From the NCBI GenBank assembly GCA_001794025.1, contig MGJA01000007.1:219-64218 (forward strand): a stretch of DNA of 64,000 nucleotides, given 5' to 3'. How positions within the stretch are numbered: the stretch's first letter is position 1; every line of letters starts with the position of its first letter. The notes under the pieces were generated by a model, which saw only the letters and a program-made list of their open reading frames with translations, was not told the origin of the DNA and did not search any database. The position numbers and the translations under genes are program-made. This DNA is from Candidatus Yanofskybacteria bacterium RIFCSPHIGHO2_01_FULL_41_21. Its GTDB lineage: Bacteria > Patescibacteriota > Minisyncoccia > 2-02-FULL-40-12 > GWA2-44-9. Shown here piece by piece: positions 18,315 through 63,973 of the stretch.

Positions 18315-18427
18315 AATTGCATAATAATTGAGAACTAACCCTTTCGCCCCAGACCCAGGAAACCAGTCCCGTCGGTTTCCCCACTGCTGTGGGTCCCCTT
18401 CCACTACTGGGTCTTAAAGGTCGGTTC

Positions 18428-18898: not shown

Positions 18899-19115
18899 CC
18901 CGCTTATAATAGCTTTTTTAGGTTATTTTTCAACCCCGCCGTTGAAGAACAGTAAGACCCCACAAGAGCGAACTGAAACCTAATAGTGACTATCGGTGTT
19001 GAAATATCTCGTTACAATAAAAAATGAAACCACTGTTCTTCAACGGCGGGGCCAATAAAAAACGGCCGGCGCCTGATACCCGAAGGTATCATTCACCGGC
19101 CACGTACAACCCGCC

Positions 19116-44412: not shown

Positions 44413-44967
44413 GTGGCCGATAAAGGCGGACTACAATTACTCCCCGAGACCAGAAAGAAGATAGACATTAAAATTCCCGGAGAAAATAGATTGATTCTCA
44501 TAGGCATTGGTCTTGTTGTTTTGGTATTACTATTTGCTGGAGGGTTGTGGATGTATAGCAATAATCTCACTGACCAAATCAGTACCGCCGACAAACAACT
44601 CGCCGACCTGGAGGCCCAGCGCGATAAAAAAGTTGAACAAAATTTAGTCACCCTTTCCAAACAAATTGTTTTAACTAGTCGGATTCTTGAAGATCATATC
44701 TATTGGTCTACGGGATTCTCTAAAATTGAATCTGCCCAACAAAGTAACGTTCAGTTTAAATCACTTTCGGCCGTCTTAGGCGAGAAAAGTATCCGTGTCA
44801 GAGCCCTTAGTGATAACTACACCACTATCGCCAGACAATTGGCCGCCTTTGTGGCTGATAATTCAGTTAAAGATGTCTCTCTTGATAGTGTCAGCACGCT
44901 TACATCCGGTAAACTGGACTTCAATATCAAGATTAAGTTTGATGAGACCAAATTCTTAAAAAATTAA
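44413..44967 (+). CDS. pilN: PilN-like pilus assembly protein
   Basis: Single N-terminal TM helix, then a coiled-coil and periplasmic domain. Position is immediately after pilM. Confidence 0.6.
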   Translation: MADKGGLQLLPETRKKIDIKIPGENRLILIGIGLVVLVLLFAGGLWMYSNNLTDQISTADKQLADLEAQRDKKVEQNLVTLSKQIVLTSRILEDHIYWSTGFSKIESAQQSNVQFKSLSAVLGEKSIRVRALSDNYTTIARQLAAFVADNSVKDVSLDSVSTLTSGKLDFNIKIKFDETKFLKN

Positions 44968-45085
44968 TTCATCCCGTTAGAAGTGAGCCCTACAAATAAA
45001 ATTATGAAAATCATTAAATCACACATATGTAATTTGCCACCACTACAATATGGTGGACAATTCGTAACACTTCTAACGGGATGAA
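44968..45085 (+). promoter_or_regulatory. intercistronic inverted-repeat element (18-bp perfect arms) enclosing the pilO start codon
   Basis: ttcatcccgttagaagtg ...(inner hairpin ccacca/tggtgg)... cacttctaacgggATGaa. The left arm begins right after the pilN stop and the right arm contains the pilO ATG. Confidence 0.6.
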
Positions 45086-45611
45086 TTTATACAGAACATA
45101 CATTGGAGCCACCCTCGTTGCCATCGCCGGAATTATTTTCTGGACAATGGTTGTGCCGGCTTATGATGATATCCTTGTTAAACGCGACGCTATCGCGGAG
45201 AGAACCGATATCATTAAGACCAGAAGCGATATTTTATCCAATATTAAGGCCTTGAGTTTAGAATATTCCAATAAAGCCACGGATATAACCCGTTTTGCAT
45301 CCATGGTACCCGAAAAAAAGGGCGTACCGGAACTTCTTTCTTCTATTCAAGCCCTTGCCACTCAAAATGGACTCCAACTCACAACAATTGCTTTAAGTGA
45401 AAATAGTAATCCTGGAGCAGCAGATTATCAAACACAATTAATTGACCTTGGTCTTAATGGTGGCTATCTGGCCTTTAAATCTTTCCTAATGGCTCTTGAA
45501 AGAAACATCCGTCTCATTGATATTATATCTATAAGTGCCAGTCCGGTTTCTGAAGATTCTCCGATTATAAATTTTAGTATTAAGGGGAATGCTTATTATT
45601 TAAAACAATGA
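45081..45611 (+). CDS. pilO: PilO-like pilus assembly protein
   Basis: N-terminal TM helix, then a coiled-coil and periplasmic domain, placed after pilN. Confidence 0.6.
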   Translation: MNLYRTYIGATLVAIAGIIFWTMVVPAYDDILVKRDAIAERTDIIKTRSDILSNIKALSLEYSNKATDITRFASMVPEKKGVPELLSSIQALATQNGLQLTTIALSENSNPGAADYQTQLIDLGLNGGYLAFKSFLMALERNIRLIDIISISASPVSEDSPIINFSIKGNAYYLKQ

Positions 45612-45883
45612 CACCCTCACAATCATCTTCAAAACTTTATATTGCCCTCATTGTCCTAGTCGGACTTATCGGTGGTTATATTATTTACAGTCAATGGATA
45701 AAACCTACCGAGGCGATGATACCGCCACCAACTGTCGGAAGTCAGGATGGCTTGTCAACGCTTAAAAATCTAAAAATAGATTTCAAGGTCCTTGATAATT
45801 CCACCTACAAAGGGCTTATCACCTCCGGTGAATCACCCGTCAATCCCGGGATAACCGGCAAGAAAGACATCTTTGCACCATAA
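45608..45883 (+). CDS. hypothetical small membrane protein in pilus operon
   Basis: One TM helix. Overlaps the pilO stop by 4 nt. Confidence 0.4.
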   Translation: MTPSQSSSKLYIALIVLVGLIGGYIIYSQWIKPTEAMIPPPTVGSQDGLSTLKNLKIDFKVLDNSTYKGLITSGESPVNPGITGKKDIFAP

Positions 45884-46000
45884 GCTTTTGTCCAAGAACG
45901 CGGTGATTGGTTACAAAAGTTTACCCCCTCACTCTTTTCAGCTTGAGTGAGGGGGTGACAAGTTTCTAGCAACTCAGCGTCGCAGCAACTGCTCGCTTCG

Positions 46001-47770
46001 TTGAGAAACATAGTCATGCCTCAACAAATACCCACGACTCTATTCCAAGAACTCATCAGGACCAAGATTATTACTCCTGAACAGGGTGAAAATATTCAAG
46101 ATATAGCCAAGAAAGAGGGGGGGGACTTGGGTCAAATTTTAATTGGACAAGAAATTATATCCGATGAAGATCTCGCCACCCTTAAATCAAAACTCTACCG
46201 ACTGCCAATTATGCATCTCGCGGATATTGAGCTTAGCCACGAGGCCCTCAAAGACGTCGGGGAAAACGTGGTCAATTTTTACAAAATCACGCCTTTTGGA
46301 AAAGAAAACTCGGTTCTTAGGGTTGGTGTTCTAAACCCGGAAGACGTTGAGGCCTTGGAAGCCCTAAAATTTGTCGCTGCCGATAAGGGTCTTACTCTTG
46401 AGAAATACGTCATTACTTACAAGGACTTCAATGCCATCACAAGAAACTATCGGACTCTTTCCGGAGAAGTCGGAAAAGCGATTGAATCACTCAATGAAGA
46501 ATTTGATAAAAAAGTTACGGTTGCCCCCGGCCAAGGTCTAGAAGAAATAACCGCTGAAGCGCCGGTTACCAAAATCGTGGCGGTCGTTATTCGTCACGCC
46601 GTTGAATCACGGGCTTCGGATATCCATATTGAACCCTTTGAGGACCGAGTTCGGGTCAGGTTTCGTATTGACGGCATTCTTGTTATCGCTCTCACTCTCC
46701 CCAAAAACCTGGCCTCGGCCGTGGTTACGCGTATCAAGATTTTATCAGACCTAAAAATTGATGAGACCCGGTTGGCCCAAGACGGCCGATTCTCTACCCG
46801 CCTCAATGACCGCAAGGTTGACTTTCGTGTCTCAACTTTTCCCACCAAAAATGGAGAAAAAGTCGTGATGCGTATTTTAGATCCGCTTTCCGGTTCAATT
46901 GATTTGCCTGATTTGGGTCTTGATGGACGTTCTTTGGAAGTTGTTGTTAGGGCTATGGCTAAACCATTCGGTTCCATTCTTATTACCGGCCCGACTGGTT
47001 CCGGTAAATCAACCACGCTTGCCGGAATGCTCAAACGTATCAACACTGATGATTTAAATATTGTTACGCTTGAAGACCCGATTGAGTATTATGTAGATGG
47101 TGTCAACCAATCCCAGATTCATGAAGAAATCGGATATACTTTTGCTTCAGGATTACGCCACATTCTTCGTCAGGACCCTGACGTCATTATGGTGGGAGAG
47201 ATCAGAGACAAGGAAACGGCTTCTTTGGCCACCCAGGCCGCTTTGACGGGCCACATCGTGCTTTCTACACTCCACACCAATGACGCTATTGGTGTCGTAC
47301 CCCGTCTTATTGATATGGGTGTTGAGAAATATCTTATTCCCTCCACATTAAACGTCGCGGCCGCTCAACGTCTATTACGTCGATTATGTACGGAATGCAA
47401 ACTAAAGGTTAAGGCCAACCCGGCCGAGACGGTTATCATTGAGACCGCCCTAAAAGATATGCCCGCTTCTTATCAAAAAGAATTTTTATCAAAAAATGGT
47501 TATGAAATCCATAAACCCAACCTTGAAAATCCCTGTAAGGTCTGTGGCGGTAAGGCCTTCAAAGGACGATTGGGTATTTTTGAAATGATGGAAATGACAA
47601 CCGAGTTTGAAAAGATAATTCTGGGGAATATTTCCGAATCGGATATGCGCGCCGAGGCTAAGCGTCAAGAAATGATAACGATGTTTCAGGATGGCATTTT
47701 AAAAGTACTGAAAGGTGTAGTATCATTAGAGGAACTACTGGAAGTCGCTCAAGCGGGGGAGAGCGCCTAA
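46001..47770 (+). CDS. pilB: type IV pilus assembly ATPase PilB (GspE family)
   Basis: GSPII_E N-terminal domain, Walker A GPTGSGKSTT, Asp and His boxes, and a tetracysteine motif. Confidence 0.9.
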   Translation: MRNIVMPQQIPTTLFQELIRTKIITPEQGENIQDIAKKEGGDLGQILIGQEIISDEDLATLKSKLYRLPIMHLADIELSHEALKDVGENVVNFYKITPFGKENSVLRVGVLNPEDVEALEALKFVAADKGLTLEKYVITYKDFNAITRNYRTLSGEVGKAIESLNEEFDKKVTVAPGQGLEEITAEAPVTKIVAVVIRHAVESRASDIHIEPFEDRVRVRFRIDGILVIALTLPKNLASAVVTRIKILSDLKIDETRLAQDGRFSTRLNDRKVDFRVSTFPTKNGEKVVMRILDPLSGSIDLPDLGLDGRSLEVVVRAMAKPFGSILITGPTGSGKSTTLAGMLKRINTDDLNIVTLEDPIEYYVDGVNQSQIHEEIGYTFASGLRHILRQDPDVIMVGEIRDKETASLATQAALTGHIVLSTLHTNDAIGVVPRLIDMGVEKYLIPSTLNVAAAQRLLRRLCTECKLKVKANPAETVIIETALKDMPASYQKEFLSKNGYEIHKPNLENPCKVCGGKAFKGRLGIFEMMEMTTEFEKIILGNISESDMRAEAKRQEMITMFQDGILKVLKGVVSLEELLEVAQAGESA

Positions 47771-47804
47771 TCAATTCCTAAGTCCTAATTTCTAATTCCT
47801 AATA

Positions 47805-48875
47805 ATGAACGATCCACAAAAGTATCTTGAAGAATTAATGGCAACCGCCACCCAAAATGGTGCCTCGGATTTACATCTTTCACCTTCAGTTCATCCAACA
47901 ATCCGGGTGGACAGTCGTCTTGTCCCTCTCGTAAATCACGAAATTTTAAGTTCAGAAAATTTAAAAGAAATCATCTCCGCCCTTCTTGGCCCAAACCGTT
48001 TGGCTCGTTTCGTTTCAGAAAAAGAATTGGACTTCTCAATTGAGATGAACAGAAACCGTTATCGTGTTAACGCTTATCAGACCAAGGGATCCTACGCAGC
48101 CACTCTTCGACTTATTCCAACCCAGATTAAGACCTTAGCCGAACTTAATCTGCCTCCGATACTAAACATATTTACTAAACTTTCCCAAGGATTTGTCCTT
48201 GTTGTTGGCCCAAACGGTCAAGGCAAATCAACAACTCTGGCCAGCATGCTTAGTACCATCAACAAAGAAAGAGGCGAAAAAATAATCACTATTGAAGATC
48301 CCATTGAATATATTTTCACACCGGAAAAAAGTATTGTGGACCAACGGGAAATTGATCAAGATACACTTTCTTTTGATAAGGCCATTCGGGCTTCATTAAG
48401 AGAAAATGTTAACGTCCTTTTGTTAAGTGATATGAGGGATTATGAGACCATGAGCGCGGCCATTACCGCTGCCGAGACCGGCCATCTAGTTTTTGCCACT
48501 TTACATACCAATAGTGCTTCTCAAACGGTTGAACGAATCATCGGAAGCTTCCCACCAAATCAACAGGCACAAATTAGAAGCCAACTCGCTTCTACTATCT
48601 CCGGAGTTATATCCCAACGTCTCATTCCCAGAATTCAGGGTGGCCTTATTCCGGCAGTGGAAGTCATGATTGCCACCTCCGCGATTCGGACTATTATTAG
48701 AGACAACAAGCCCAGACAGCTTGATCAAACCATTGAAACCAGTCAAAACGTCGGCATGATATCGTTAGATAAATCACTGGCTGATTTAGTCAGAAGAAAA
48801 GAGATAAGCTTGGAGCGGGCTGAATTCTATTCTATAAACCCGGAACTCATGCGAACCTATAATCAAAATCAATAG
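47805..48875 (+). CDS. pilT: twitching motility ATPase PilT
   Basis: Walker A GPNGQGKSTT and the PilT-type C-terminal region. Confidence 0.9.
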   Translation: MNDPQKYLEELMATATQNGASDLHLSPSVHPTIRVDSRLVPLVNHEILSSENLKEIISALLGPNRLARFVSEKELDFSIEMNRNRYRVNAYQTKGSYAATLRLIPTQIKTLAELNLPPILNIFTKLSQGFVLVVGPNGQGKSTTLASMLSTINKERGEKIITIEDPIEYIFTPEKSIVDQREIDQDTLSFDKAIRASLRENVNVLLLSDMRDYETMSAAITAAETGHLVFATLHTNSASQTVERIIGSFPPNQQAQIRSQLASTISGVISQRLIPRIQGGLIPAVEVMIATSAIRTIIRDNKPRQLDQTIETSQNVGMISLDKSLADLVRRKEISLERAEFYSINPELMRTYNQNQ

Positions 48876-48967
48876 AATAGCCCTCCTACGCTAAAGCTTC
48901 GGACGGGCACTTCTTCGCTCACCAGCAAGAAATGCCTGCACTTCGAAGCTCCAGCAGGAGCGAAGAA

Positions 48968-50170
48968 GTGGAGTATAAATACCAAACCAAAAATGCAGAC
49001 GGTCAGATTGTGGAGGGGATTATAGACGCGCCATCAGAAGATAGCGCTATTTCTATTCTTCACAGCAAACAAGTCGTTGTTTTATCACTTGAAGAATTTA
49101 AGAAAGACGTTTTTTCTAAAGACCTGAACCAGGTTTTATCAAGAACAACAACAAAAGATATTGTTGTGTTCACACGTCAAATGGCGACACTCATTGAGGC
49201 CGATATGCCCCTCGCCGAAGGTCTTCGTACTCTTGCTCAACAAACCGAGAAACCGGGATTAAAAAAGATAGTCATGGATGTTGCCAAAAATGTTGAAGGG
49301 GGTTCTTCATTGTCATCGGCCCTAAGCAACCACCCCAAGGTATTTACCACTTTCTATATTAAACTGGTCCAATCCGGAGAGGTCTCCGGTAAACTTCAGG
49401 CATCATTATCATATCTGGCTGATTACCTTGAACGCAGTCAAAGTATTAATTCCAAAATAAGAGGAGCGTTAATTTATCCGGCCTTTGTGGTCTCGGCCAT
49501 GATTATCGTTATGCTGATTATGGGCGTCTACGTTTTACCCCAATTGCTTTCAATATTTGAGGACTCGGGCATCACCGAATTACCAATCACGACCAGAATA
49601 CTGATGGCCGGTACGGACTTTCTTAATAATTACCTCTATTACATCTTACTGGTCTTAATCGTTGGGGGCTTTCTAACCGTCCGATTCTTAAAAACAACTA
49701 AAGGTAAGATTTGGCGAGACAACTTCTTAGTCACTATGCCTAGTTTGGGAAAAGTTATTCAAAATCTTTACTTGGCTCGCGTATCCGAGAGTTTGTCTAC
49801 CCTCATTAAGTCGGGGCTACCAATTCTTGATGCTTTGCATATAGCATCCGACCTTGTTGGCAATGAAAACTATAGAAGAATCATTATCGCGGCCGAGGAA
49901 AATGTTCGAAATGGCGGTAATATATCCGAAATTCTTAGCCAATATGCCGAAATGCCACCATTGTTCAGCTCTATGGTCGCCATCGGGGAAAGGACGGGCA
50001 AGCTTGACTACATGCTTGAACACGTCTCTAAATTTTATAAGTCCGAGTCCGAAACAGCCATTGGAAGCATCACCCAGTTAATTGAGCCAATACTGGTCCT
50101 CGTCCTTGGTTTCGGTGTCGCCATCTTGGTTTCCAGTATTTTGTTGCCAATTTATAGTATGGTGGGTTAA
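48968..50170 (+). CDS. pilC: type IV pilus platform protein PilC (GspF family)
   Basis: Two GspF repeats. The start is set at GTG with AGGAG 7 nt upstream (MEYKYQTKNADGQIVEG...). The longer ATG ORF would run through an upstream repeat element. Confidence 0.8.
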   Translation: MEYKYQTKNADGQIVEGIIDAPSEDSAISILHSKQVVVLSLEEFKKDVFSKDLNQVLSRTTTKDIVVFTRQMATLIEADMPLAEGLRTLAQQTEKPGLKKIVMDVAKNVEGGSSLSSALSNHPKVFTTFYIKLVQSGEVSGKLQASLSYLADYLERSQSINSKIRGALIYPAFVVSAMIIVMLIMGVYVLPQLLSIFEDSGITELPITTRILMAGTDFLNNYLYYILLVLIVGGFLTVRFLKTTKGKIWRDNFLVTMPSLGKVIQNLYLARVSESLSTLIKSGLPILDALHIASDLVGNENYRRIIIAAEENVRNGGNISEILSQYAEMPPLFSSMVAIGERTGKLDYMLEHVSKFYKSESETAIGSITQLIEPILVLVLGFGVAILVSSILLPIYSMVG

Positions 50171-50181
50171 TTTTAGTGTTG

Positions 50182-50471
50182 ACACTCACACCTAGTCGGC
50201 TTTATGTATTATTTTTATATTCTGAAAAATGATGAAGGGGGTCTTTATTTTGGTTATACATCAGATTTAAAAAAGAGGATTGAGCAACACAATTCTTCAA
50301 CAACAAGAACAACAGCGGGTAAGCATTGGAAAGTTATATATTATGAAGCTTATTATTCTCAATCCGACGCAAAACACAGAGAATATAGTATAAAGTTGCG
50401 TGGAAATGCTTACCTTCAACTGAAAAGAAGAATTAAGAATTGTGTTGCTGAAGCCGACTAGGTGTGAGTGT
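50182..50471 (+). mobile_element. mini selfish element: GIY-YIG ORF bounded by 21-bp perfect terminal inverted repeats, inserted between pilC and pilA
   Basis: Left inverted repeat acactcacacctagtcggctt at 50182-50202, right inverted repeat aagccgactaggtgtgagtgt at 50451-50471. The ORF fills the interior and its stop codon lies inside the right inverted repeat. Confidence 0.6.
50204..50461 (+). CDS. GIY-YIG nuclease family protein (85 aa)
   Basis: MYYFYILKNDEGGLYFGYTSDLKKRIEQHN has the GIY...YIG motif. Confidence 0.65.
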   Translation: MYYFYILKNDEGGLYFGYTSDLKKRIEQHNSSTTRTTAGKHWKVIYYEAYYSQSDAKHREYSIKLRGNAYLQLKRRIKNCVAEAD

Positions 50472-50541
50472 TGATATCTTAACTTGTACTTTCTAATGAA
50501 CGGCTCATAATAGAGCTAATAAACTAATCTAATTTTCAACC

Positions 50542-51066
50542 GTGTCTATTAAAAAACACTTTCGTCTCTCTAGAGGTTTTACGTTAGTTGAATTGTTGGT
50601 CGTTATCGCTATTATCGGTATTTTGGCGACCTTACTTCTTCTGCAATTAGGTGTCGCTCGTCAACGCGCTAGAGACGTCAAGCGTATTGCTGATGTTAAT
50701 CAGTTAAGAACTTCTGTGGAACTCTACTATGATGATAATGGTTCATATCCGGCCGATATTACTAATACCGAATTAAGTAAATACATGGTTCGGGTTCCAA
50801 CCGACCCATTAGTTGCTGCTACTACTTACGGCTACAAAACAAAAACCGCTGCTAAATTACAGTACCAGGTCTGGACCGAACTTGAACAAAAAGCTCTTGG
50901 TGCTCTTAATGCCGATGCCGACATTAATGCTAGTGCATGGGCTGGACCAGGTAACGCCAGGGGAGGCGTTGATGGCAGAGGGGAAGCCCCGGGTGTCGCT
51001 GAGGCCTGCGCAAACAGTGATACAACAGATAACGAATGTGTCTACGACCAAGGTCAAAATATGTAA
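50542..51066 (+). CDS. pilA: type IV major pilin (prepilin-type N-terminal cleavage/methylation domain)
   Basis: Leader ...RLSRG|FTLVELLVVIAIIGILA with Glu at +5, and two Cys in the C-terminal region. Confidence 0.85.
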   Translation: MSIKKHFRLSRGFTLVELLVVIAIIGILATLLLLQLGVARQRARDVKRIADVNQLRTSVELYYDDNGSYPADITNTELSKYMVRVPTDPLVAATTYGYKTKTAAKLQYQVWTELEQKALGALNADADINASAWAGPGNARGGVDGRGEAPGVAEACANSDTTDNECVYDQGQNM

Positions 51067-51128
51067 CCTCTTATCATAACAATATAAAAACCCCCGCTAA
51101 GTCAGGGGTTTTTATATTGTTATGATAT
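51067..51128 (+). terminator. very long perfect hairpin (~27-bp stem) after pilA
   Basis: cttatcataacaatataaaaaccccc-gctaagtca-ggggtttttatattgttatgatat. T-run only partly present. Confidence 0.55.
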
Positions 51129-51138
51129 AATTCAACCA

Positions 51139-51891
51139 ATGATACTTTTAATAATTCTGGCTGTTCTGGGTGGTCTTATTTATGGCAGTTTTTTAAATGT
51201 TCTTTTGTGGCGCTTACCCGAAGGAAAAGGGATTGGAGGACGTTCTCATTGTCGTGCCTGTCATCACCAATTGGCCTGGTATGACCTAATCCCAGTTTTA
51301 AGTTTCATAATACTTAGAGGGCGGTGTCGGTATTGTCATACAACAATCCATATCAGATATCCGATTGTGGAAATAAGTACTGCTATCGTCCTGGCTTTTT
51401 TCTTCGCTTTGCGTCAACCGCCACTAGGTCTTGAATCAGTAGTAACCGTTTTCGCTCTGCTTGTTTTAGTAAGTTTACTGTTTTTTGATTTATTTTATTT
51501 AATATTACCCGACATAATCCTTCTGCCGACTATTGTCATTTTCACAATTTACGACATCACCAAAACCCAAAACCCACTTTCATACTTCTTAACAGCATTA
51601 CTCTCGGCCAGTTTTTTTGCTATACTTTACGCAGTATCCAAGGGTAAAAATCTGGGTTTTGGCGACGTAAAATTAGCCCTTCTTATTGGTCTAATTCTCT
51701 GCTACCCATTAGGGTTCCTGGCGATTATTGGAGGAGTGTGGTCAGCCACAATTGTAGCGGTCATTCTCCTGATATTAGGAAGGGTTGGACTCAAAGACAA
51801 AATACCTCTAGGTTCGTTTTTGGCTATTTCCACTATTATTTCCGTCATTTTTTATCATGAAATACTCCCACTCACGACATTTTTCCGATAA
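51139..51891 (+). CDS. pilD: prepilin peptidase PilD (A24 family)
   Basis: N-terminal Cys-rich motif CRAC...CRYC and multiple TM helices. Confidence 0.85.
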   Translation: MILLIILAVLGGLIYGSFLNVLLWRLPEGKGIGGRSHCRACHHQLAWYDLIPVLSFIILRGRCRYCHTTIHIRYPIVEISTAIVLAFFFALRQPPLGLESVVTVFALLVLVSLLFFDLFYLILPDIILLPTIVIFTIYDITKTQNPLSYFLTALLSASFFAILYAVSKGKNLGFGDVKLALLIGLILCYPLGFLAIIGGVWSATIVAVILLILGRVGLKDKIPLGSFLAISTIISVIFYHEILPLTTFFR

Positions 51892-52501
51892 GAGAGGGCC
51901 TGTCCCGCCGTTGAAGAGTCGTGCTACTAGTAGACACGCTAATTTAAATTTTTTAAAAAAATACGACTCTTCAACGGCGGGGTTCACTCTAGTTGAAATA
52001 CTGGTCGTCGCAGCAATTATTGGATTTTTAAGCACTTCTCTTATCCTCAATTTTTCTAGGAGTCGGATTAATATTGAGCAGAATGCTAATCTTGTTATGG
52101 CGACCATCCGTGAAGCCCAATCAAAAACCGTTTCCAGTACGATTTATAACGGTTATAATCCATGCGGTTACGGCGTTCATTATATTAGTCCAACTCAACT
52201 GGCTATCTATGTTGGACCAGACGCCGCCACCGCAGACCCAAGTTGTGCGACTATGGATAAACGTTATAACGCTAACCGAGATTCTATTTTAATAACCAGG
52301 ACTTTCATTGATTCCCGTGTTGAAATGAAAAACCCATTTTTAGACATCTTCTTTCTGCCACCGGACCCAAAAACATATTTGGATAATGATGCTTCATTAA
52401 ATGGCTCACCAATTAGTATCCAAATAGGTGTTGCCGGAGAGGCCTGTTCCCAAAATTGCCGAACCATATCCATAGACCCATCCGGAAAAATAGAATATTG
52501 A
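51857..52501 (+). CDS. minor pilin-like protein (prepilin-type N-terminal domain; start uncertain)
   Basis: G|FTLVEILVVAAIIGFL is preceded by an unusually long leader (~40 aa from the ATG). A 19-bp perfect inverted repeat lies inside the leader region. Confidence 0.6.
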   Translation: MKYSHSRHFSDKRGPVPPLKSRATSRHANLNFLKKYDSSTAGFTLVEILVVAAIIGFLSTSLILNFSRSRINIEQNANLVMATIREAQSKTVSSTIYNGYNPCGYGVHYISPTQLAIYVGPDAATADPSCATMDKRYNANRDSILITRTFIDSRVEMKNPFLDIFFLPPDPKTYLDNDASLNGSPISIQIGVAGEACSQNCRTISIDPSGKIEY

Positions 52502-52618
52502 TAATCCCGTTAGAAGTTAACTCAAACATGAATAACATTTTAAATAATATGAAACCTCCTAAACTTGCCACCATTTTGAAGCGGTGGACGTTCGGTAGAA
52601 CTTCTAACGGGATGAAAT
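52502..52618 (+). promoter_or_regulatory. second copy of the pilus-locus inverted-repeat element enclosing a pilin start codon
   Basis: atcccgttagaagtt ...(inner hairpin ccacc/ggtgg)... aacttctaacgggATGaa. It begins 1 nt after the upstream stop codon. Confidence 0.6.
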
Positions 52619-53085
52619 TCCAAAAGGGTTTTACTCTAGTTGAAACCCTTGTTTCACTGGTAATCTTAACGGTTGTCCTTATCCCGATTCTTAACCTTTC
52701 CGATTCTATAACAAGAGTTAATGCTTCTCTCCAAGACAACTTGATTGCCGCTGGTTTAGCCCAAGAGGGGCTTGAAGTTGTTCGGGCTATTCGAGACACT
52801 AATTGGTTCAATAGTCGGGCTTTTGACTCTGGTTTAAACGACGGTACTTACCAAATTGAATGGAATTCAAATACACTACTTTCACTTAACGGCAACCCGG
52901 TACTTAAATTAGACAATGGAAGATATAATTATTCTACCGGCACATCCACAAAATTCAGTAGAGCTATAACAATCACAAAAATTAACACGGGCGAACTCAA
53001 AATTGTTAGCGCTGTAACGTGGACCAGTCGCGGAAGTATAAACAAAAGTATTGATGCCGAATTGCATCTCTTTAACTGGAAATGA
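52612..53085 (+). CDS. minor pilin (prepilin-type; PilV/FimT-like)
   Basis: Classical leader MKFQKG|FTLVETLVSLVILTVVL. The start is set at 52612 rather than at the upstream ORF start. Confidence 0.75.
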   Translation: MKFQKGFTLVETLVSLVILTVVLIPILNLSDSITRVNASLQDNLIAAGLAQEGLEVVRAIRDTNWFNSRAFDSGLNDGTYQIEWNSNTLLSLNGNPVLKLDNGRYNYSTGTSTKFSRAITITKINTGELKIVSAVTWTSRGSINKSIDAELHLFNWK

Positions 53086-53708
53086 TTAATAATTTTCAAA
53101 ATAAATCAGCAAAAAACCAAAGTGGGTTTATCCCGCACATAAAGAACCGCTTTGGAATCAAGCCACGAAGTGGCTACGGTTCATTATGTGCGGGGTTTAC
53201 GATTATTGAGGTTTTGGTCTCGGCCTTTGTTTTTTCAATTATCGCAATCGTCGTTGGCGGTTTATTTGTGCAGATTCTCGCCTCCGAACGCCGAGCTTTT
53301 GCTTCTCAAAAAATTCAGGAAAACGGCCTCTTTATTATGGAACTGATGTCGCGAGAGATACGAGTTAGCCAAATAATGGACAGCGATCAAAATCCATCAG
53401 GGGATTCACCAAATTGTACACTAACCGAATTGACTATCCGACATCCGGTCAATGGTGTTATAAAATACAATCTTCTGAATGATGTTCTTCAGCGTATTAG
53501 TGTTGATGAAAGCGCCACAACTGATTTAAGTTCTTCAACTGTGTCTTTTTCCCGTTTGAATTTTTGCCTTTTAGGTTCTGACCCAGACGATAATCAGCAA
53601 GCTCGGGTCGCTATTCTTACATCAATTCAAAATAAAACCGGTAAAGAAATCGTAACCGCTAACCTAGAGACCGCCGTCTCTTCCCGTGATGTTCAAATTG
53701 AATTCTAA
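53082..53708 (+). CDS. minor pilin-like protein (long leader)
   Basis: G|FTIIEVLVSAFVFSIIAIVVG prepilin core with a ~33-aa leader. The leader region contains a 17/18-bp inverted repeat. Confidence 0.6.
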   Translation: MINNFQNKSAKNQSGFIPHIKNRFGIKPRSGYGSLCAGFTIIEVLVSAFVFSIIAIVVGGLFVQILASERRAFASQKIQENGLFIMELMSREIRVSQIMDSDQNPSGDSPNCTLTELTIRHPVNGVIKYNLLNDVLQRISVDESATTDLSSSTVSFSRLNFCLLGSDPDDNQQARVAILTSIQNKTGKEIVTANLETAVSSRDVQIEF

Positions 53709-54093
53709 TTTACCCCGGCCAGCAGGCGGGGACCAACAAGGATCCGTAATTATATTTACGCTTTTAATATTGGGGAGTATGCTGGCCATAACCCTAGCTC
53801 TGGCAACTATTTACTTGCCAAGAATTAGAGTAATAAGTGACGCCGGAGCCGGTTCAGCCGGTGCCATATATGCCGCTGATAGCGCTATTGAATGGTGTCT
53901 CTATACCTACCGGGAAAATCCACCATTACCGTCACCGGCCATGCCAGTTATGTCCAACGGCGCTACCTACACACTTATACCGCCAACAGGATGTGAGCCC
54001 TCGGCTACACCCGCACCCCTTAGTGTTCAAGCGGTTGGCACATATAACAGCGTCAGTCGTTCTCTACAGGTAAATGTTCAGATAACGCCGTAG
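53686..54093 (+). CDS. pilin-like membrane-anchored protein (PilX-like; no Glu+5)
   Basis: N-terminal hydrophobic helix VIIFTLLILGSMLAITLALATIYL. The gene is last in the pilin-gene run. Confidence 0.45.
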   Translation: MMFKLNSNLPRPAGGDQQGSVIIFTLLILGSMLAITLALATIYLPRIRVISDAGAGSAGAIYAADSAIEWCLYTYRENPPLPSPAMPVMSNGATYTLIPPTGCEPSATPAPLSVQAVGTYNSVSRSLQVNVQITP

Positions 54094-56243: not shown

Positions 56244-56284
56244 CAGTGTTTGATTCCAAAGCTCTTATAATATATAATAAAATT

Positions 56285-56488
56285 ATGACGTATTTAACAG
56301 TTATTCACAAAAGCAAACATGGTTATGACGTACACGTTCCAGCCCTTCCCGGTTGTCATAGTCAAGGCAAGACAAAAAAAGAAGCATTAAGCAATATTCA
56401 AGACGCTATCCTTGCATATCTCTTCATGTCTCAAGATGAACTTAAGGGATCAGAAGTAAAAGAAGTCACGGTTGCCCTCCCTTCTTAA
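56285..56488 (+). CDS. hicB: HicB-family antitoxin
   Basis: YDVHVPALPGCHSQGKTKKEALSNIQDAILAYL matches the HicB core. The start is set at the internal Met. Confidence 0.65.
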   Translation: MTYLTVIHKSKHGYDVHVPALPGCHSQGKTKKEALSNIQDAILAYLFMSQDELKGSEVKEVTVALPS

Positions 56489-56490
56489 GT

Positions 56491-56706
56491 ATGCTGTTCA
56501 CCGACTTATCTGAAAAGCGAGTTGTAACGGCCCTTCAAAAGGGCGGTTTTTGGATTGCAAAAACATTTGGAAAGAAACACGTCGGTATGACAAACGGTAC
56601 AAGAAAAATTATTATACCTCGGACTACAAGAGTTAACCCCTACACATTGAAGGGTATCATTCGAGATGCAGGTTTAACAGACGAAGAATTCAAAAAACTT
56701 TTATAA
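56491..56706 (+). CDS. hicA: HicA-family mRNA interferase toxin
   Basis: GKKHVGMTNGTRKIIIPRTT...LKGIIRDAGLTDEEFKKLL matches the HicA/YcfA pattern. Confidence 0.7.
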   Translation: MLFTDLSEKRVVTALQKGGFWIAKTFGKKHVGMTNGTRKIIIPRTTRVNPYTLKGIIRDAGLTDEEFKKLL

Positions 56707-57721
56707 GCTCCTGTAACTTATTGGCATTGCCATGACTTAATAAACCAAAGTACGACTGAAGGGTTGCTTTGTTATTTTTACGCTCTTTAATACGTTTAAA
56801 CATTCTTCGTTTGGTTGCGGCTCGTAAGACCCGATGATTGGGAAAATGCACCCAACCCAGAAAATCTTCACCGGAGGCAATAGTCCGGATTGAGACCTTA
56901 TTTGGATGAATACTCAGTCCCAATTCTTCAGACAAAAAATCTCCTATTTTCGGCAGAAGTTCTTGAAGCCAATATTTATCATGTGATACTACCACAAAAT
57001 CATCAGCGTATCTGATATAATATTTCGCTTTCATACTATGTTTCATAAACTGGTCAAACTTATTCATGTATATATTTACAAATAATTGGGAGGTGAGATT
57101 GCCGAGTGGCAAGCCGATAGTCGGCTTTATAGAATGGAAACTGCTAATAATCTGATTTATCAGCCATCGTACATCTTGGTCACTTATATAACTGTCAAGT
57201 ATTTGCATAAGCGCAACCTTGTTAACTGAAGCAAAAAACTTTCTGATATCACATTTCAAAACCCAAACGGTTTTGGTATTATTGTAGCTATCTTGATTTA
57301 CAAATAACTGAAAACGATTCAAGGGCTTATGGCTCCCTTTTCCAATCCGGCAAGAATATGAGTCATAAATAAATGTTCGGTCAAAAAATGGATATAAGAT
57401 ACGGTAAATGGCATGATGAAGTAGTCGGTCTCGAACGCTTGCCTTGTGGATACTTCGAGGTTTGGGGTCGGAAATTTTAAAGGCCTCATACCCGCCATGC
57501 CGATATGTTTTGGCCGCGAGATCGCGATGCAGTAAAATAATATTGCTCATCAAGTTTTGTTCAAATTCTTGAACATCTTTGCGTTTTCTTTTTCCGACCC
57601 GAAATTCCTTCCACGCCTCAAGGAGATTTTCAAGAGATATGATATTATCGTAACTATGAGTGAATTTAATTCTCACAAAAATTATGACCCTGTAAGCCCC
57701 CCCCCCCACGGCTTCTGCCAC
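56690..57721 (-). CDS. diversity-generating retroelement reverse transcriptase
   Basis: RT motifs including YIRYADDFVV (YxDD). The DGR-specific motif-4 variant LGNLTSQ (I/LGxxxSQ) is present in place of the QGxxxSP form. A TR/VR pair lies 0.4-1 kb upstream on the same strand. Confidence 0.85.
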   Translation of the reverse strand: MAEAVGGGAYRVIIFVRIKFTHSYDNIISLENLLEAWKEFRVGKRKRKDVQEFEQNLMSNIILLHRDLAAKTYRHGGYEAFKISDPKPRSIHKASVRDRLLHHAIYRILYPFFDRTFIYDSYSCRIGKGSHKPLNRFQLFVNQDSYNNTKTVWVLKCDIRKFFASVNKVALMQILDSYISDQDVRWLINQIISSFHSIKPTIGLPLGNLTSQLFVNIYMNKFDQFMKHSMKAKYYIRYADDFVVVSHDKYWLQELLPKIGDFLSEELGLSIHPNKVSIRTIASGEDFLGWVHFPNHRVLRAATKRRMFKRIKERKNNKATLQSYFGLLSHGNANKLQELIKVF

Positions 57722-57732
57722 TTTTACAGGAA

Positions 57733-58089
57733 GTGAAGATGGCTTACTTGCTCTGGTTTGAATATTACCAAACCATACCTAAAGCGCACAGGCACACCCT
57801 TGGCCAGCAAATAGATAATCTTTGGATTGAAATTATAAAAACACTCGCTGTCGCGAGTTTTTTACCGCGTCAAGAAAAACTGCCTTATGTCCGCTCAACA
57901 ATCCAAAAAGTTGATACATTGAAAATATTGCTGATGATCCTGTGGGAAGCGGGCTCTCTCCAAAACCAAAAATATATCGCACTCTCACTAAAGATTGAAA
58001 TCATCGGTAAAATGTTAGGTGGTTGGAACGGTCAGCTTATAAAACAAAACTCCTCCGAATCTGCCGCTCGGCAATCGAAGGAGAAATGA
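57733..58089 (+). CDS. small helical protein between the reverse transcriptase and template repeat; possible Avd-like accessory protein
   Basis: 118 aa, predicted helical, positioned between the reverse transcriptase gene and the template repeat. Its orientation is opposite to the reverse transcriptase, so assignment is tentative. Confidence 0.3.
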   Translation: MKMAYLLWFEYYQTIPKAHRHTLGQQIDNLWIEIIKTLAVASFLPRQEKLPYVRSTIQKVDTLKILLMILWEAGSLQNQKYIALSLKIEIIGKMLGGWNGQLIKQNSSESAARQSKEK

Positions 58090-58095
58090 AGAGAG

Positions 58096-58218
58096 TTGCG
58101 AGCACGGCGGACGGGTTGTTGACGTTCCAGTCATTGTCGAGCCAGTTGTAGTTCCAGTTCCACGCACCGTCGTTGAAGTAGAAGTACAGGACGTAACGGT
58201 TGCCGTTCGGACTGCGTT
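58096..58218 (-). repeat. DGR template repeat
   Basis: A 123-nt repeat about 99/123 identical to 58580-58702. All 24 mismatches fall at positions that are A on the minus strand of this copy. Read in the variable-repeat frame, these positions give Asn (AAC) codons (NDGAWNWNYNWLDNDWNVNN). Confidence 0.85.
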
Positions 58219-58565
58219 GTGTGAAATGCCTTCTTTGTCCCTGCCCCCTTTGAAGGCCCACGCCGATCTTGGGTTCTATTGTCTTCGGCATCGTAATGCC
58301 CTAGCATCCCACACCAAGTATCTTCAATTTTTGAAGTTTCTGCATACACCGCGCTATCTCAAACACATGGTCGGAAATATTCTGGATGTATGGATACTGG
58401 CTTCGGTAGCGAGAAACCATGGTCGCCCGCATATTCACCTGGTGCCAGTTTTATTATATCAAGATTTTTTGGATAAAAATATCCCTGATGGGCTACGCGT
58501 CAGACGCGTAGCCCATCAGGGCAGAGATCAAAGATCCCGAGAGCCAGAACTTAGTGCCCCAGAAC

Positions 58566-59291
58566 CTAGGCCTGATTACTTGCGAGCACGGCGGACGGGC
58601 GGCCGACGCCCCAGTCATCGCCGAGCCAGCGGCAGCGCCAGCTCCACGCACCGTCGAAGAAGTAGAAGCACAGGACGCAACGGAAGCCGCGCGGACTGCG
58701 CAACACCGTGCCGTCGCAGTAGATGTACGTCGTGTTGCCGTTCGTCTTCTCCTTGAAGCGAGCCGGGAGCAACTCACGATTGTCCCACAGCGCTTTGAAA
58801 GCGCCAGCGTCCAAACGAATCTCGCCCGACACCTTGAGACGCTTCAGCTTTTCTTCTCCACCGACGGCGGTCTCGCCCGGCTTGAGTGTGCTCTTCAGCA
58901 CAATCGCGCTCAAGTCAATCTGGGCAAGGGCGAGCGAACGCAGATCCTGTTCTTCGTCACCCGAGAGACCATCGCCGTCTGCCGGACCCCGCCAGATTGT
59001 CCACCCCGCGCCGATAAATTCGGCGGGATTGAACGGCTTGGACCGGTCAATCGGGATGATTCTCGGCTCTCCGACGATGACCCGCGCGCCGTTACGCAGG
59101 AAGGTGGTGAACTGCTGACCCGCTCCCGCCATGTCACGCATGACTCGGTCTTGCAGTCCCGCGCCATCAAAATCGATGGTGGACCAGTCAGTGTTCGTGG
59201 CAAGAGCCGCCATGATTGCGTGGGATTGGTCGAGAGTGATTTTCCCCATTGCCGTCTCCATTCTGAGATGTCCGCTTACTATTGGTCCCAC
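58566..59291 (-). CDS. DGR target (variable) protein, GC-rich
   Basis: A 241-aa ORF whose C-terminus (YIYCDGTVLRSPRGFRCVLCFYFFDGAWSWRCRWLGDDWGVGRPSAV) is encoded by the variable repeat. About 60% GC. Confidence 0.7.
   Translation of the reverse strand: MGPIVSGHLRMETAMGKITLDQSHAIMAALATNTDWSTIDFDGAGLQDRVMRDMAGAGQQFTTFLRNGARVIVGEPRIIPIDRSKPFNPAEFIGAGWTIWRGPADGDGLSGDEEQDLRSLALAQIDLSAIVLKSTLKPGETAVGGEEKLKRLKVSGEIRLDAGAFKALWDNRELLPARFKEKTNGNTTYIYCDGTVLRSPRGFRCVLCFYFFDGAWSWRCRWLGDDWGVGRPSAVLASNQA
58580..58702 (-). repeat. DGR variable repeat in the 3' end of the target gene
   Basis: The counterpart of the template repeat, carrying C/G/T substitutions at every template-repeat adenine position. It encodes the last ~45 residues of the ORF at 58566-59291. 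Confidence 0.85.
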
Positions 59292-59485
59292 GTCATGCGA
59301 GATTTAAGTAAACGACCTACGGTTTTTTACCGCAGAATATAAATGCCATTTATATAGCCGCTATATTCTGCGGTAATCCTTAAAAACAGGTTAATAAAGT
59401 ACTATTTAATTACTTCTTAAGTATACGCCTAATTCTAACAAAAGTCAATGGTGGCAAAGAAGGTCAAATATGATATTTTTAGGAT

Positions 59486-62432: not shown

Positions 62433-62508
62433 GCCCTTGTAGTTCAATGGATAAGAACAGTCCCGTCCTAAGGGATAGATGTAGGTTCGATTCCTACTGA
62501 GGGCACCA
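62433..62508 (+). tRNA. tRNA-Arg (anticodon CCU), CCA encoded
   Basis: Acceptor gcccttg/tgagggc (two G-U pairs), D-stem gttc/gaac, anticodon arm gtccc-gtCCTaa-gggat, T-loop gtaggttcgattcctac. Confidence 0.75.
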
Positions 62509-63973
62509 CAATCAAACTTTCCGATTTTTGCCCGACCGATTCGGCCGCGCGAAGCGCGGAAAGGTATGGAAGCACTGGCTCGCCGCGCACGGCGCGGCTC
62601 GCCAAGCGCAGGTTCGAGCCAAAGATTTCTTTGGCAGCAACCTTCTTCGCAAGAAGGTTGCTATCCCTTGCGATTTTGACGAGGGTTAAAGCGACTTTTA
62701 TCCAGTTTTGGAACGGTTCGAGCCAATCATTCTGCTTTTGTTCAATCCGCGCCATTTTCTCCTCCAGCGACTTCTTTTCCAAAAGGAGTTTTGTTTTTTG
62801 TTCGCGGTAGATTTCTCGCTCAATGTCCTGCTCTAAATAGCCGTCCAGAAGTCGCTGGAGCTTCGTTTGTATGGCGCGGATTTTGATTTGAGATTCAAGA
62901 ACAAAAGCAGAAACGGATTGGGCGGATACCGCTTTGTCTTTTTCTGCCATTGCTAACAATTTTTCCGCCCAATCCGGTCGCAAAGAAACTTTTTGAATAA
63001 GAGATGATAACTGCCGATCCAATTCTTCCTCGCGGGCATAAGGTTGAGAACATTTGATTTTCTTTTTGGTACAGCGGTAGTAAATATGTCCTTTCTGTTT
63101 TTCGGCAGTTATCATCATCCCGCACTCGGCGCAAGAGATAAGGCCGCAAAATGCTTGCGGTTCATTCTTTTGCTTATACCTCGGCTTTCCTCGTTGGTGT
63201 AAAATCTCTTGCGCCATATCAAAAAGTTTCTTTGTGATGATTGGCTCGTACTTTCCTTCGTGGAGTTCACCGCCATATTTGAATAATCCGGTGTAGAACG
63301 GATTGGAAAGGATAAAAGTCGCCCTCGTCTTGTGGATTCTCTTTCCGCCGCGGGAGAATATCCCGCGTTGCGCCAAAAAGTTTGAAATATCCTCTAACCG
63401 CGAATTTCCTTTTGCGTACAGCTCAAACGCTTGGCGAATAATCCGAGCTTTCTTGCGGTCAACAACGATAGATTTAGTTCGTACATCATTTATGTAGCCG
63501 ATAGGCGCAACGCTCGGATATTCGCCCCGTCTCACTTTTTGGCGCAAACCACGCTTCGTGTTTTCGGAAAGAGAATCCACATAGTATTTGCTTTGCCCAA
63601 AAGCGATATTCAACATAAATTTTCCTTGCGGCGTTGGCTCAAACCAGAATTGAGGGAATTTCAACGCTGCAATATGCCCGCAATCAATGAGATAAATGAT
63701 TTGTCCACCATCTACAGAATTGCGCGCCAATCTGTCCGGATGCCAAGCCAAAATTCCGTCCGCCTCGCCATGTTCAATTCTTTTCAGCATTTTGCCAAAT
63801 ATCGGACGGCCCGGAATTTTGGCTGATTGTTTCTCTACAAATTCCTCTACCATATAGAGATTATTTTGCTTGGCAAAAGCGCGCAATTCTGTGATCTGCG
63901 CTTCAATACTCAAAACTTGTTTATCCTCAACATCTGTTGATTTGCGGGCGTAGAGAAAAAATTTGTTGTTCAT
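62468..63973 (-). CDS. large serine recombinase (resolvase/invertase N-domain + recombinase domain + zinc ribbon)
   Basis: N-terminal catalytic Ser context (LYARKSTDVEDKQVLSIEAQ), a recombinase domain, a Cys4 zinc ribbon (CAECG...CTKKKIKC) and a coiled-coil. The ORF's 3' end reads into tRNA-Arg (...VGIEPTSIP). Confidence 0.85.
   Translation of the reverse strand: MNNKFFLYARKSTDVEDKQVLSIEAQITELRAFAKQNNLYMVEEFVEKQSAKIPGRPIFGKMLKRIEHGEADGILAWHPDRLARNSVDGGQIIYLIDCGHIAALKFPQFWFEPTPQGKFMLNIAFGQSKYYVDSLSENTKRGLRQKVRRGEYPSVAPIGYINDVRTKSIVVDRKKARIIRQAFELYAKGNSRLEDISNFLAQRGIFSRGGKRIHKTRATFILSNPFYTGLFKYGGELHEGKYEPIITKKLFDMAQEILHQRGKPRYKQKNEPQAFCGLISCAECGMMITAEKQKGHIYYRCTKKKIKCSQPYAREEELDRQLSSLIQKVSLRPDWAEKLLAMAEKDKAVSAQSVSAFVLESQIKIRAIQTKLQRLLDGYLEQDIEREIYREQKTKLLLEKKSLEEKMARIEQKQNDWLEPFQNWIKVALTLVKIARDSNLLAKKVAAKEIFGSNLRLASRAVRGEPVLPYLSALRAAESVGQKSESLIVVPSVGIEPTSIP

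Follow-up and report, generated by a model that had tools for sequence, protein, structure and literature searches.

A miniature palindromic element at gene starts and prepilin cleavage codons in a type IV pilus operon of Candidatus Yanofskybacteria, with relatives across the Candidate Phyla Radiation

The DNA analysed here is a 64-kb window (64,000 nucleotides of contig MGJA01000007.1) from Candidatus Yanofskybacteria bacterium RIFCSPHIGHO2_01_FULL_41_21, a member of the Patescibacteria or Candidate Phyla Radiation (CPR). It contains a type IV pilus operon composed of pilM-N-O, pilB, pilT, pilC, a major pilin gene, the prepilin peptidase gene pilD and four minor pilin-like genes, three of which are called pilin1, pilin2 and pilin3 below. 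Long inverted-repeat hairpins, the subject of this work, lie at several gene starts and in pilin leaders of this operon; they are designated E1 to E4, and a further copy outside the pilus locus is designated E5 (Table 1).

The window was scanned for inverted repeats (perfect arms of 11 nt or more, loops of 3-170 nt), using 20 shuffles as a control. We found 46 such repeats against 1-7 per shuffle, and 6 hairpins of the CCCG...CGGG type against 0-2. The four hairpins listed in an earlier note on this DNA are present and are strongly non-random, with fold z-scores of about -4 to -8 relative to shuffles. Its description of E3 and E4 (19-nt perfect arms inside the pilin1 leader, and 17/18 arms with an inner GCCAC-GAA-GTGGC hairpin inside the pilin3 leader) holds as given. 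E1 indeed lies between the pilN stop and pilO, with the ATG in its right arm, but its arms measure 20 nt instead of 18. Similarly, E2 has the 15-nt arms reported but begins 2 nt, not 1 nt, past the upstream TGA stop, and its right arm does not end 1 nt before the pilin2 ATG, as the final AT of the arm already belongs to this codon. Two copies were added to the list, one on the pilC start and one outside the pilus locus. E1-E4 recur base for base in as many as 10 contigs that were assembled independently from the same population (Rifle-type groundwater metagenomes) and, therefore, are not assembly artefacts. Two contigs of this population, L005 and L010, end in or just past E3 (~51900-51980), and repeated hairpin elements seem to break the short-read assemblies of these CPR genomes.

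Table 1. Hairpin elements and other features of the window discussed in the text (positions are those of the window; z, fold z-score against shuffles).
Feature	Position	Strand	Arms and internal features	Context	Folding
E1, CCCGTTAGAAG-type palindrome	44966..45087	+	perfect arms 20 nt, 44966-44985 / 45068-45087; core CCCG...CGGG 44973-45080; internal open reading frame (ORF) of 26 codons, ATG 45004 to TGA 45082-45084, its stop overlapping the pilO ATG	between pilN stop (TAA, 44965-44967) and pilO start (ATG 45081-45083, inside the right arm)	dG -42.5, z -7.8
Composite insertion on pilC start	48881..48970	+	27-nt putative remnant, 48881-48907; different 63-nt palindrome, 48908-48970, arms CACTTCTTCGCTC / GAGCGAAGAAGTG; internal ATG 48932 in frame with pilC	pilC start (GTG 48968)	z -4.6
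pilD	51139-51891			prepilin peptidase gene	
E3, 78-nt CCCGCCGTTGAAGA-type element	51904..51981	+	perfect arms 19 nt, 51904-51922 / 51963-51981	pilin1 leader, directly 5' of the G|FTLVE codons	z -7.7
E2, CCCGTTAGAAG-type element	52504..52613	+	arms 15 nt, 52504-52518 / 52599-52613; core 52506-52611; internal ATG 52528 in frame with pilin2	between pilin1 stop (52499-52501) and pilin2 ATG (52612-52614), whose first two bases are the final AT of the arm	z -4.2
E4, 63-nt CCCGCACATAA-type element	53132..53194	+	arms 17/18, 53132-53149 / 53177-53194; inner hairpin AGCCAC-GAA-GTGGCT	pilin3 leader, directly 5' of G|FTIIE; flanks GTTTAT (53126-53131) and GTTTAC (53195-53200)	z -7.2
Mini-palindrome CCCCGGCC-AGCA-GGCGGGG	53713..53731	+		within a 24-nt in-frame insertion, gene after pilin3	
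E5, E3-type copy	18935..19050	.	arms CCCCGCCGTTGAAGAACAGT	intergenic spacer near tsaE, outside the pilus locus	z -6.6
GIY-YIG cassette	50183-50470		GIY-YIG ORF 50204-50461	between pilC and major pilin	
Family B palindrome	4114-4220			in frame in recG (ORF 2632-4836)	
Family B palindrome	18323-18436			exactly between tsaE stop and polA start	
HicB-like antitoxin/HicA-like toxin pair	56246-56706			directly after ligA, between pilus operon and retroelement	
Reverse transcriptase gene	56690-57721	-		diversity-generating retroelement	
bAvd accessory gene	57733-58089			adjacent to the reverse transcriptase gene	
G+C-rich region	~58200-59350			next to the retroelement	
tRNA-Arg	62433-62508			adjoined by the recombinase gene	
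Large serine recombinase gene	62468-63973			adjoins tRNA-Arg	

Three arm variants (CCCGTTAGAAG, CCCGCCGTTGAAGA and CCCGCACATAA) are distinguished among the 5-7 copies of the window, whose perfect arms span 15-20 nt. The 27-nt segment of the composite insertion, which ends in CTTCGGACGGG, looks like the remnant of an E1/E2-type element, and the mini-palindrome 3' of pilin3, in the next gene, may be what a deletion has left of an element. The unusually long pilin leaders pointed out in the earlier note are real: translation of pilin1 would run in frame through E3 and that of pilin3 through E4, with net insertions of 84 nt (78+6) and 69 nt (63+6), respectively, both of them stop-free. In the frame set by the insertion site, E3 and E4 are stop-free only in the observed orientation (and frame), and their removal yields the canonical short leaders MKYSHSRHFSDKRG|FTLVE and MINNFQNKSAKNQSG|FTIIE.

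The termini shared by E1 and E2 (CCCGTTAGAAG...CTTCTAACGGG) occur at more than 120 loci in very diverse CPR/Patescibacteria genomes. Indeed, when one genome per GTDB species was scanned with the pattern CCCGTTAGAAG-N70-100-CTTCTAACGGG, at least 120 stretches matched; the counts given below over 123 copies refer to the copies in the matches listed (loci L011-L130), in which arm positions 1-11 are fixed exactly by the search pattern and hence invariant by construction. Nearly all matches belong to CPR/Patescibacteria (Saccharibacteria, Kaiser-, Nomura-, Zambryski-, Moran-, Falkow-, Levy-, Kerfeld- and Komeilibacteria, and Kazan), with a few exceptions in bins assigned to Planctomycetota, Deltaproteobacteria or Clostridia. 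Copies whose termini are C...G and whose interiors are G+C-rich (L018, L026, L035, L062, L065, L069, L087, L113 and L121) sit in bins named Planctomycetota, Syntrophobacter, Clostridia, Deltaproteobacteria, Bdellovibrionales and Pirellulales; they are either mis-binned CPR contigs or a sign that the element reaches beyond the CPR. Several genomes hold three or more copies, some of them near-identical. At least 3-4 copies are found on separate contigs of single metagenome-assembled genomes (e.g., CAZLXA01, MFWK01 and JAMCZC01), and near-identical copies can lie at different genes of one genome, as in L052 (two copies) and L060.

These elements are about 60-121 nt long, their terminal inverted repeats start with Y-CCCG and end with CGGG-R, and between these lies a variable, A/T-rich interior that often has a small hairpin towards one of its ends. 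They contain no transposase gene, and the ORFs inside them are mini-ORFs of ~40 codons or fewer. Across the 123 copies, the conserved terminal stem comprises 13-14 bp (Y-CCCGTTAGAAG-Y and its complement). The pair just outside the arm core (position -1) is T-A in 85 copies and C-G in 35, being Watson-Crick in 121/123, and the pair at arm position 12 is T-A in 68 and C-G in 47 (Watson-Crick in 119/123).

Flanking the CCCG/CGGG core on either side, six bases make up a direct repeat that has a single sharp register, with an identity per position of.58,.82,.75,.75,.76 and.43 compared to ~.25 in other registers. The central 4 nt are the same on both sides in 75 of the 123 copies, in contrast to 6-8% when the flanks of different copies are paired, and the duplication borders non-coding copies as well. 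The outer two of the six positions are explained by the terminal Y/R of the element and, therefore, the repeat is best read as a locus-specific target-site duplication (TSD) of 4 (occasionally 5) bp, mostly of the form T-N-N-A (TGAA, TGGA, TTTA, TCAA, TTCA, TATA and others).

The placement of the copies relative to genes is strongly biased. Two thirds of the sampled copies (82/123) lie immediately against the start codon of an ORF (50 codons or longer) that points away from the element, a further 8 may supply the start codon via an in-frame fusion, and 4 lie in frame inside ORFs; among copies with T...A termini, ~90% are on start codons. Start-codon copies typically have ATG-R-A-T as their upstream flank and ATG-R-A-N as their downstream flank, which shows that an original A|TGRA was duplicated, so that the terminal A of the element and the duplicated TG rebuild the ATG. 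The orientation is also fixed, since an asymmetry motif adjacent to the arm has a gene-proximal position in 55 copies, as opposed to 2 copies where it is gene-distal (p = 2e-14), and the small inner hairpin is in the gene-proximal half in 24/30 copies. The downstream genes are mostly housekeeping genes (topA, ssb, tig, aminoacyl-tRNA synthetases, mreB, rpsB, pgk, tpi and Pth), and pilus genes are represented by PilC (three times) and one PilB/PilT-type ATPase. The occurrence of the same element, with its TSDs, at many unrelated loci and genomes contradicts the pilus-specific regulation considered in the earlier note, which had itself named this outcome as a refutation.

The comparison of pilus loci among relatives, suggested in the same note as a check, provides support for mobility. 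Each junction was compared in three syntenic loci recovered via PilD homologues, L131 (90% identity), L132 (72%) and L133 (70%). Empty sites include pilN/pilO junctions reading 'TAATGAAT' and pilin leaders ending in KG|FT. At pilN/pilO, the site of E1, the junction is empty in L131 ('ttaATGAATtta', a stop/start overlap) and in L133 ('ccaATGAACtta'), while L132 displays a diverged element of the same design with perfect ATGAAT/ATGAAT flanks, which, read by eye, is open for 36 codons from ATGA to ATGA. At pilT/pilC, where the window has its composite insertion, the genes overlap without any element in L131 and L133, and L132 contains a 107-nt E1/E2-like element. The pilin1 leader carries an E3-type element in the window, L131 and L132 (with TTCA/TTCA flanks in the latter) and is empty in L133 ('gccggcTTTACG', ...NSAG|FTLVE, 'ggcTTTACG'). 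In pilin2, E2 at the ATG is replaced by E3-type elements in the leader in L131 and L132, and L133 is empty (...FQKG|FTLVE). In the pilin3 leader, the E4-type copy of the window corresponds to an E3-type copy in L131 and to empty sites in L132 and L133. Finally, the weak fifth candidate of the earlier note, the mini-palindrome in the gene after pilin3, proved to belong to an in-frame insertion relative to L133, which is empty; the insertion is shared with L131, and L132 has a full E2-like element at the site, whose internal ATG now supplies the start codon. Sister copies of E2 in L116 and L132 (12494-12600) have the same outward-reading ORF. Therefore, the empty sites, together with the different subfamilies found at the same site, indicate a mobile element rather than a conserved regulator.

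Taken together, we consider that these hairpins are probably (with a probability of about 0.72) copies of a non-autonomous, palindromic mobile element distributed across the CPR, which resembles a MITE, or miniature inverted-repeat transposable element, and inserts at gene starts and at pilin cleavage codons in such a way that the genes remain translatable. It displays terminal inverted repeats, a TSD, a small size without transposase, multiple dispersed copies and insertion polymorphism, and a new MITE-like superfamily is the label that suits it best. The suggestion of the earlier note that a miniature mobile element targets pilin starts is thus retained with regard to mobility, which is attested by TSDs and empty sites, but pilin genes are not the target as such.

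Several observations weigh against this interpretation and call for caution. The copies are phylogenetically non-independent, inflating the family statistics. In the window itself, the duplication is clean only for E4; those of E2 and E3 are degraded, and that of E1 is partial, with the left copy reading as the reverse complement. The 8-kb loci inspected contained no arm pairs spaced as in an insertion sequence; neither an autonomous copy nor a transposase with these terminal repeats was recovered there, and viral contigs gave no matches. Solitary arms in L021 and L055, regarded as candidate ends of an autonomous copy, turned out to be ordinary or degraded copies. For copies with T...A termini, ~90% of which are on starts, a generic T-N-N-A target is insufficient as an explanation; what is needed is either a preference that extends to ATGRA or an advantage for the host. 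The left flank GGGCTTGC is common to copies in different pilin genes, and the spread among pilin paralogues may, on this basis, have occurred by gene conversion rather than transposition. Lastly, 19 of the 54 copies that keep the upstream ATG/GTG have no evident ORF path through the element, so the translational relay proposed below would not be the whole story.

The element targets short sequences that pilus genes happen to carry, not pilin genes as such, and copies cluster in the pilus operon because it offers two types of target where insertion is harmless. The first would be the A|TGRA starts: other pilus genes begin with ATGAA or ATGGA and overlap their upstream neighbours, and an insertion there would rebuild the ATG right after the right arm and leave the protein unchanged (pilO, pilin2 and pilC). 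The second would be the TTYA, a preferred target, within GGN-TTY-ACN, which encodes the prepilin G|F-T cleavage site (pilin1 and pilin3), a motif that type IV pilin genes all encode at their processing site. In this case, the insertion would be discarded by PilD along with the leader, and the GGG of the right arm plus the duplicated TTYA would restore G|FT. Besides E3 and E4, four more in-ORF copies that are read through were found elsewhere. Half of the E3-type copies in JGI metagenomes are in pilins, 5/5 of which share the orientation of E3, but all five represent the lineage of the window itself; a specificity of the E3 type for pilins was thus rejected for want of independent evidence.

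How the genes remain translatable has to be considered in the light of the initiation modes of these bacteria. Shine-Dalgarno-like motifs precede ORF starts at background level, in 4/40 cases in the window and 15/291 (~5%) in other CPR loci. The sequestration of ribosome-binding sites proposed in the earlier note does not fit these counts, and a Shine-Dalgarno site carried by the element was likewise rejected (5/82 in the upstream flank and 0/82 in the arm, against ~5% genome-wide). In contrast, a TATAAT-like box is found 4-9 nt before the ATG in 9/40 window ORFs and 92/291 ORFs of CPR loci, versus 11% of random ATGs, and the proportion is 23/53 before the upstream ATG copies. A sigma-70 scan of the locus showed no enrichment (34 against 27±5 in shuffles). 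The operon genes overlap by 1-11 nt, and leaderless mRNAs and stop/start coupling appear, judging from these sequence features, to be the main modes of initiation. A promoter inside the element driving a leaderless mini-ORF was also rejected, as a -10-like box is present before 17/55 internal ATGs compared to 23-28% of other ATGs there.

A gene with an insertion on its start codon is expected to lose the connection to its initiation signal unless ribosomes still reach it, and copies would persist only where translation can run or relay through the element. Such a relay could follow three routes, in which an ORF from the upstream or an internal ATG leaves via the right arm and stops at the arm TAA 5 nt before the ATG, stops at an ATGA overlap (as in E1), or is joined to the gene as a single reading frame (E2 and pilC). 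Indeed, internal ATG-ORFs of at least 15 codons end at the arm TAA (in the context CTTC-TAA-CGGG-ATG, with the TAA 5 nt before the start) in 36/82 copies, versus 2-7/82 in five control frames. Internal mini-ORFs reach the right arm, in any frame, in 39 copies (14.4±3.4 expected from interior shuffles), and 13 copies can be read through from the upstream ATG copy to the arm (5.2±2.1 expected). Every pilus-operon copy in the window has a translational path: an overlap in E1, an in-frame ATG in E2 and pilC, and an in-frame insertion in E3 and E4. We propose that selection for such a path would explain the fixed polarity.

The most serious alternative, although the evidence leans against it, is that the hairpins are a domesticated RNA module, which perhaps arrived by transposition but is kept because it serves expression. 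It could act as a processing site, where an endoribonuclease cuts the stem base and releases the downstream cistron with a 5'-terminal AUG as a leaderless mRNA, or as a bridge, in which the folded stem brings the upstream stop or a leaderless start close to the true ATG. In all 82 gene-adjacent copies the stem finishes precisely at the ATG, their one universal feature; essential genes carry the element, its polarity is fixed, and the genomes are poor in Shine-Dalgarno motifs and rich in leaderless starts; in addition, the copies with an upstream ATG copy and no ORF path (the 19/54 mentioned above) need another mechanism. There is also a precedent, the cleavage of Correia elements at their terminal repeats by RNase III (PMC10969869). 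The recurrence of the 11-nt arm core (exact by the search pattern) in phylum-level lineages and the arm positions -1 and 12, which vary yet stay paired (121/123 and 119/123), could be added to these arguments, but such conservation and covariation are equally expected of terminal repeats bound by a transposase. Moreover, close relatives without elements at the same junctions simply have overlapping genes, which makes the elements dispensable. The RNA stability of the sense and antisense strands differs by only -1.1 kcal/mol (48:34, p = 0.03), too weak a difference, and E3 and E4 are inside ORFs and evidently translated. Nor is there an Rfam match: with Rfam 15, only tRNAs reach the gathering threshold in the window, and under permissive settings only plant miRNA-precursor models match, far below the threshold.

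A more far-reaching version of this idea, somewhat less likely still, holds that the hairpins are portable gene-start modules of the CPR, in which Shine-Dalgarno initiation is largely missing, and that their stem marks the cleavage or bridging point that provides a 5'-terminal AUG or a terminating ribosome. The closest analogy would be the tRNA punctuation of mitochondrial transcripts. If this were true, a mobile element would have become part of the translation start for operon-internal and essential genes in the CPR.

Programmed translational bypassing, with take-off at the upstream codon copy and landing on the downstream one so that the hairpin is skipped, is very improbable. Matched codons (ATG-RAT...ATG-RAN and GGG-TTT...GGG-TTT) do flank a stable hairpin, as in T4 gene 60 and the mitochondrial 'byp' elements, where a hairpin-forming insert is located between matched codons of a coding region. 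However, in the CPR elements these codons are fully explained by the TSD, which is also found at non-coding copies. The in-gene copies are always in frame and stop-free, which bypassing would not need and which points to ordinary translation; furthermore, no consistent stop codon lies past the take-off site, and the enrichment of ORFs inside the elements argues for their translation.

Even less credit can be given to an inverton, in which the repeats would be recombinase sites and the A/T-rich interior a promoter whose flipping controls whether the pilus genes are expressed. Inverted repeats of 13-20 bp around a 40-90 bp A/T-rich segment beside surface-structure genes, and a serine recombinase gene in the same window, would suit this idea, but the interior sequence and its orientation are identical in 10 independent assemblies and the polarity is 55:2 across genomes. 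An internal promoter is unsupported (17/55 vs 23-28% in controls), copies are found inside ORFs and on housekeeping genes, and flanking duplications are not a feature of invertons. Lastly, ordinary intergenic hairpins (terminators or attenuators) would account for stable stem-loops between genes, but no T-tract follows the stems, a terminator scan makes no call on them, two copies are inside ORFs and the loops measure 27-82 nt, while chance palindromes are refuted by the same sequence at more than 120 loci and its strong departure from shuffles, which leaves this last option practically no weight.

Returning to the mobile-element interpretation, the closest known counterparts are the Correia (NEMIS) elements of Neisseria and the ERIC elements of enterobacteria. 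These are also small and non-autonomous, with terminal inverted repeats, a TSD and many copies per genome, and they are likewise located between genes of one transcript and fold into long hairpins. Nevertheless, their terminal repeats are unrelated in sequence to those of the CPR element, the Correia duplication is TA instead of the 4-5 bp T-N-N-A observed here, and each is confined to a genus or family, in contrast to an element common to phylum-level CPR lineages. The location exactly on a start codon, which is rebuilt with a fixed polarity in two thirds of the sampled copies, separates the CPR element further; to our knowledge, such start-codon rebuilding has not been described for Correia or ERIC. 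Both alter downstream expression, Correia being cut by RNase III at its terminal repeats and ERIC having orientation-dependent effects, and the term 'start codon' is never mentioned in the review that covers these effects (PMC10969869).

The Rickettsia palindromic elements (RPEs), selfish palindromes that lie in frame and stop-free at protein-tolerated positions of coding genes (PMC10969869), are comparable in behaviour to E3 and E4 in the pilin leaders and to a copy of a second palindromic family in recG (family B, see below). RPEs are ~150 bp long, encode conserved peptides and are not known to have clear duplications. The host of the element described here is a CPR bacterium and not Rickettsia. 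The in-gene CPR copies also differ from RPEs in that they occupy a specific site, namely the prepilin cleavage-motif codons, which means that the extra residues are removed with the leader, and most copies of the family are at starts and not in genes.

Concerning the origin of mobility, a transposition enzyme acting on these elements would have to be supplied in trans. The 4-bp duplication of the T-N-N-A type may point to the piggyBac/IS1380 superfamily of DDE transposons: the piggyBac duplication is TTAA and those of IS1380 measure 4-5 bp. The piggyBac end, CCCTAGAAAG, begins with CC(C) and resembles CCCGTTAGAAG; this resemblance is short and could be due to chance, and serves as a lead, no transposase having been found in the 8-kb loci inspected. 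Other candidates were rejected. REP/BIME sequences, mobilised by RAYT, are imperfect palindromes of 20-40 nt with a GTAG/CGTC head, and the present elements have Y-CCCG heads, a total length of 63-121 nt and long loops. In integron attC sites (RYYYAAC at the 5' end and GTTRRRY at the 3' end) the order is reversed (5' ...GTTAGAAG ... CTTCTAAC... 3' in the CPR element) and the R/Y positions do not fit. Intrinsic terminators would have a T-run after the stem, which is missing here, and are not called by the scan; CRISPR repeats and DNA-uptake sequences were considered from the sequence and discarded. We searched the literature on the motif, on MITEs or palindromes in the CPR and on start-codon MITEs, and no description of the element was found. 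Three aspects seem to be novel. One is how widely the element is distributed over the CPR; another is its systematic position on start codons, where the ATG is rebuilt, the polarity is fixed and a mini-ORF reads outward; and the third is that prepilin cleavage-site codons are used repeatedly as a safe harbour.

These elements represent one small palindromic family common to a whole bacterial superphylum, located on the start codons of essential genes without killing them, and they point to a transposition system at work in CPR bacteria. In pilins, the element repeatedly strikes the one place, the leader cleaved at G|FT, where added residues are discarded. It also offers a handle on translation without Shine-Dalgarno motifs in the CPR, through leaderless starts and stop/start coupling, to which relay ORFs or RNA processing may be added. 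On a practical level, the elements make gene callers extend or misplace starts, resulting in inflated pilin leaders and, for instance, a pilin2 of 185 aa instead of 157.

Other repeats and mobile features are present in the window. The GIY-YIG ORF (85 aa) is part of a ~288-bp cassette that carries 18-bp terminal inverted repeats (CACTCACACCTAGTCGGC / GCCGACTAGGTGTGAGTG) and is bordered by TTGA at either end. L133 has an uninterrupted spacer at the orthologous position ('cctAGTGTTGATATCTT'), and L131 holds a 135-nt E4-type hairpin there (L131 9198-9332). This unit has the appearance of a small mobile cassette whose duplication, like that of the hairpin elements, is of the T-N-N-A type. Family B is unrelated to the hairpins and its two copies share the core ...CCTTAAGCCCCAG...CTGGGGCGAGAGGG...; the one in recG contributes, past the CPRIE motif, ~36 residues rich in Gly/Ser/Pro. 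A HicB-like/HicA-like pair was recognised by Pfam matches between the pilus operon and a diversity-generating retroelement. The retroelement is conserved in the syntenic loci L131 and L132, and the G+C-rich region next to it may hold the template/variable repeats. Finally, the coding sequence of the large serine recombinase (501 aa) contains at least 8 perfect inverted-repeat pairs of 14-19 nt, some of them nested and 70-220 nt apart, far above chance.

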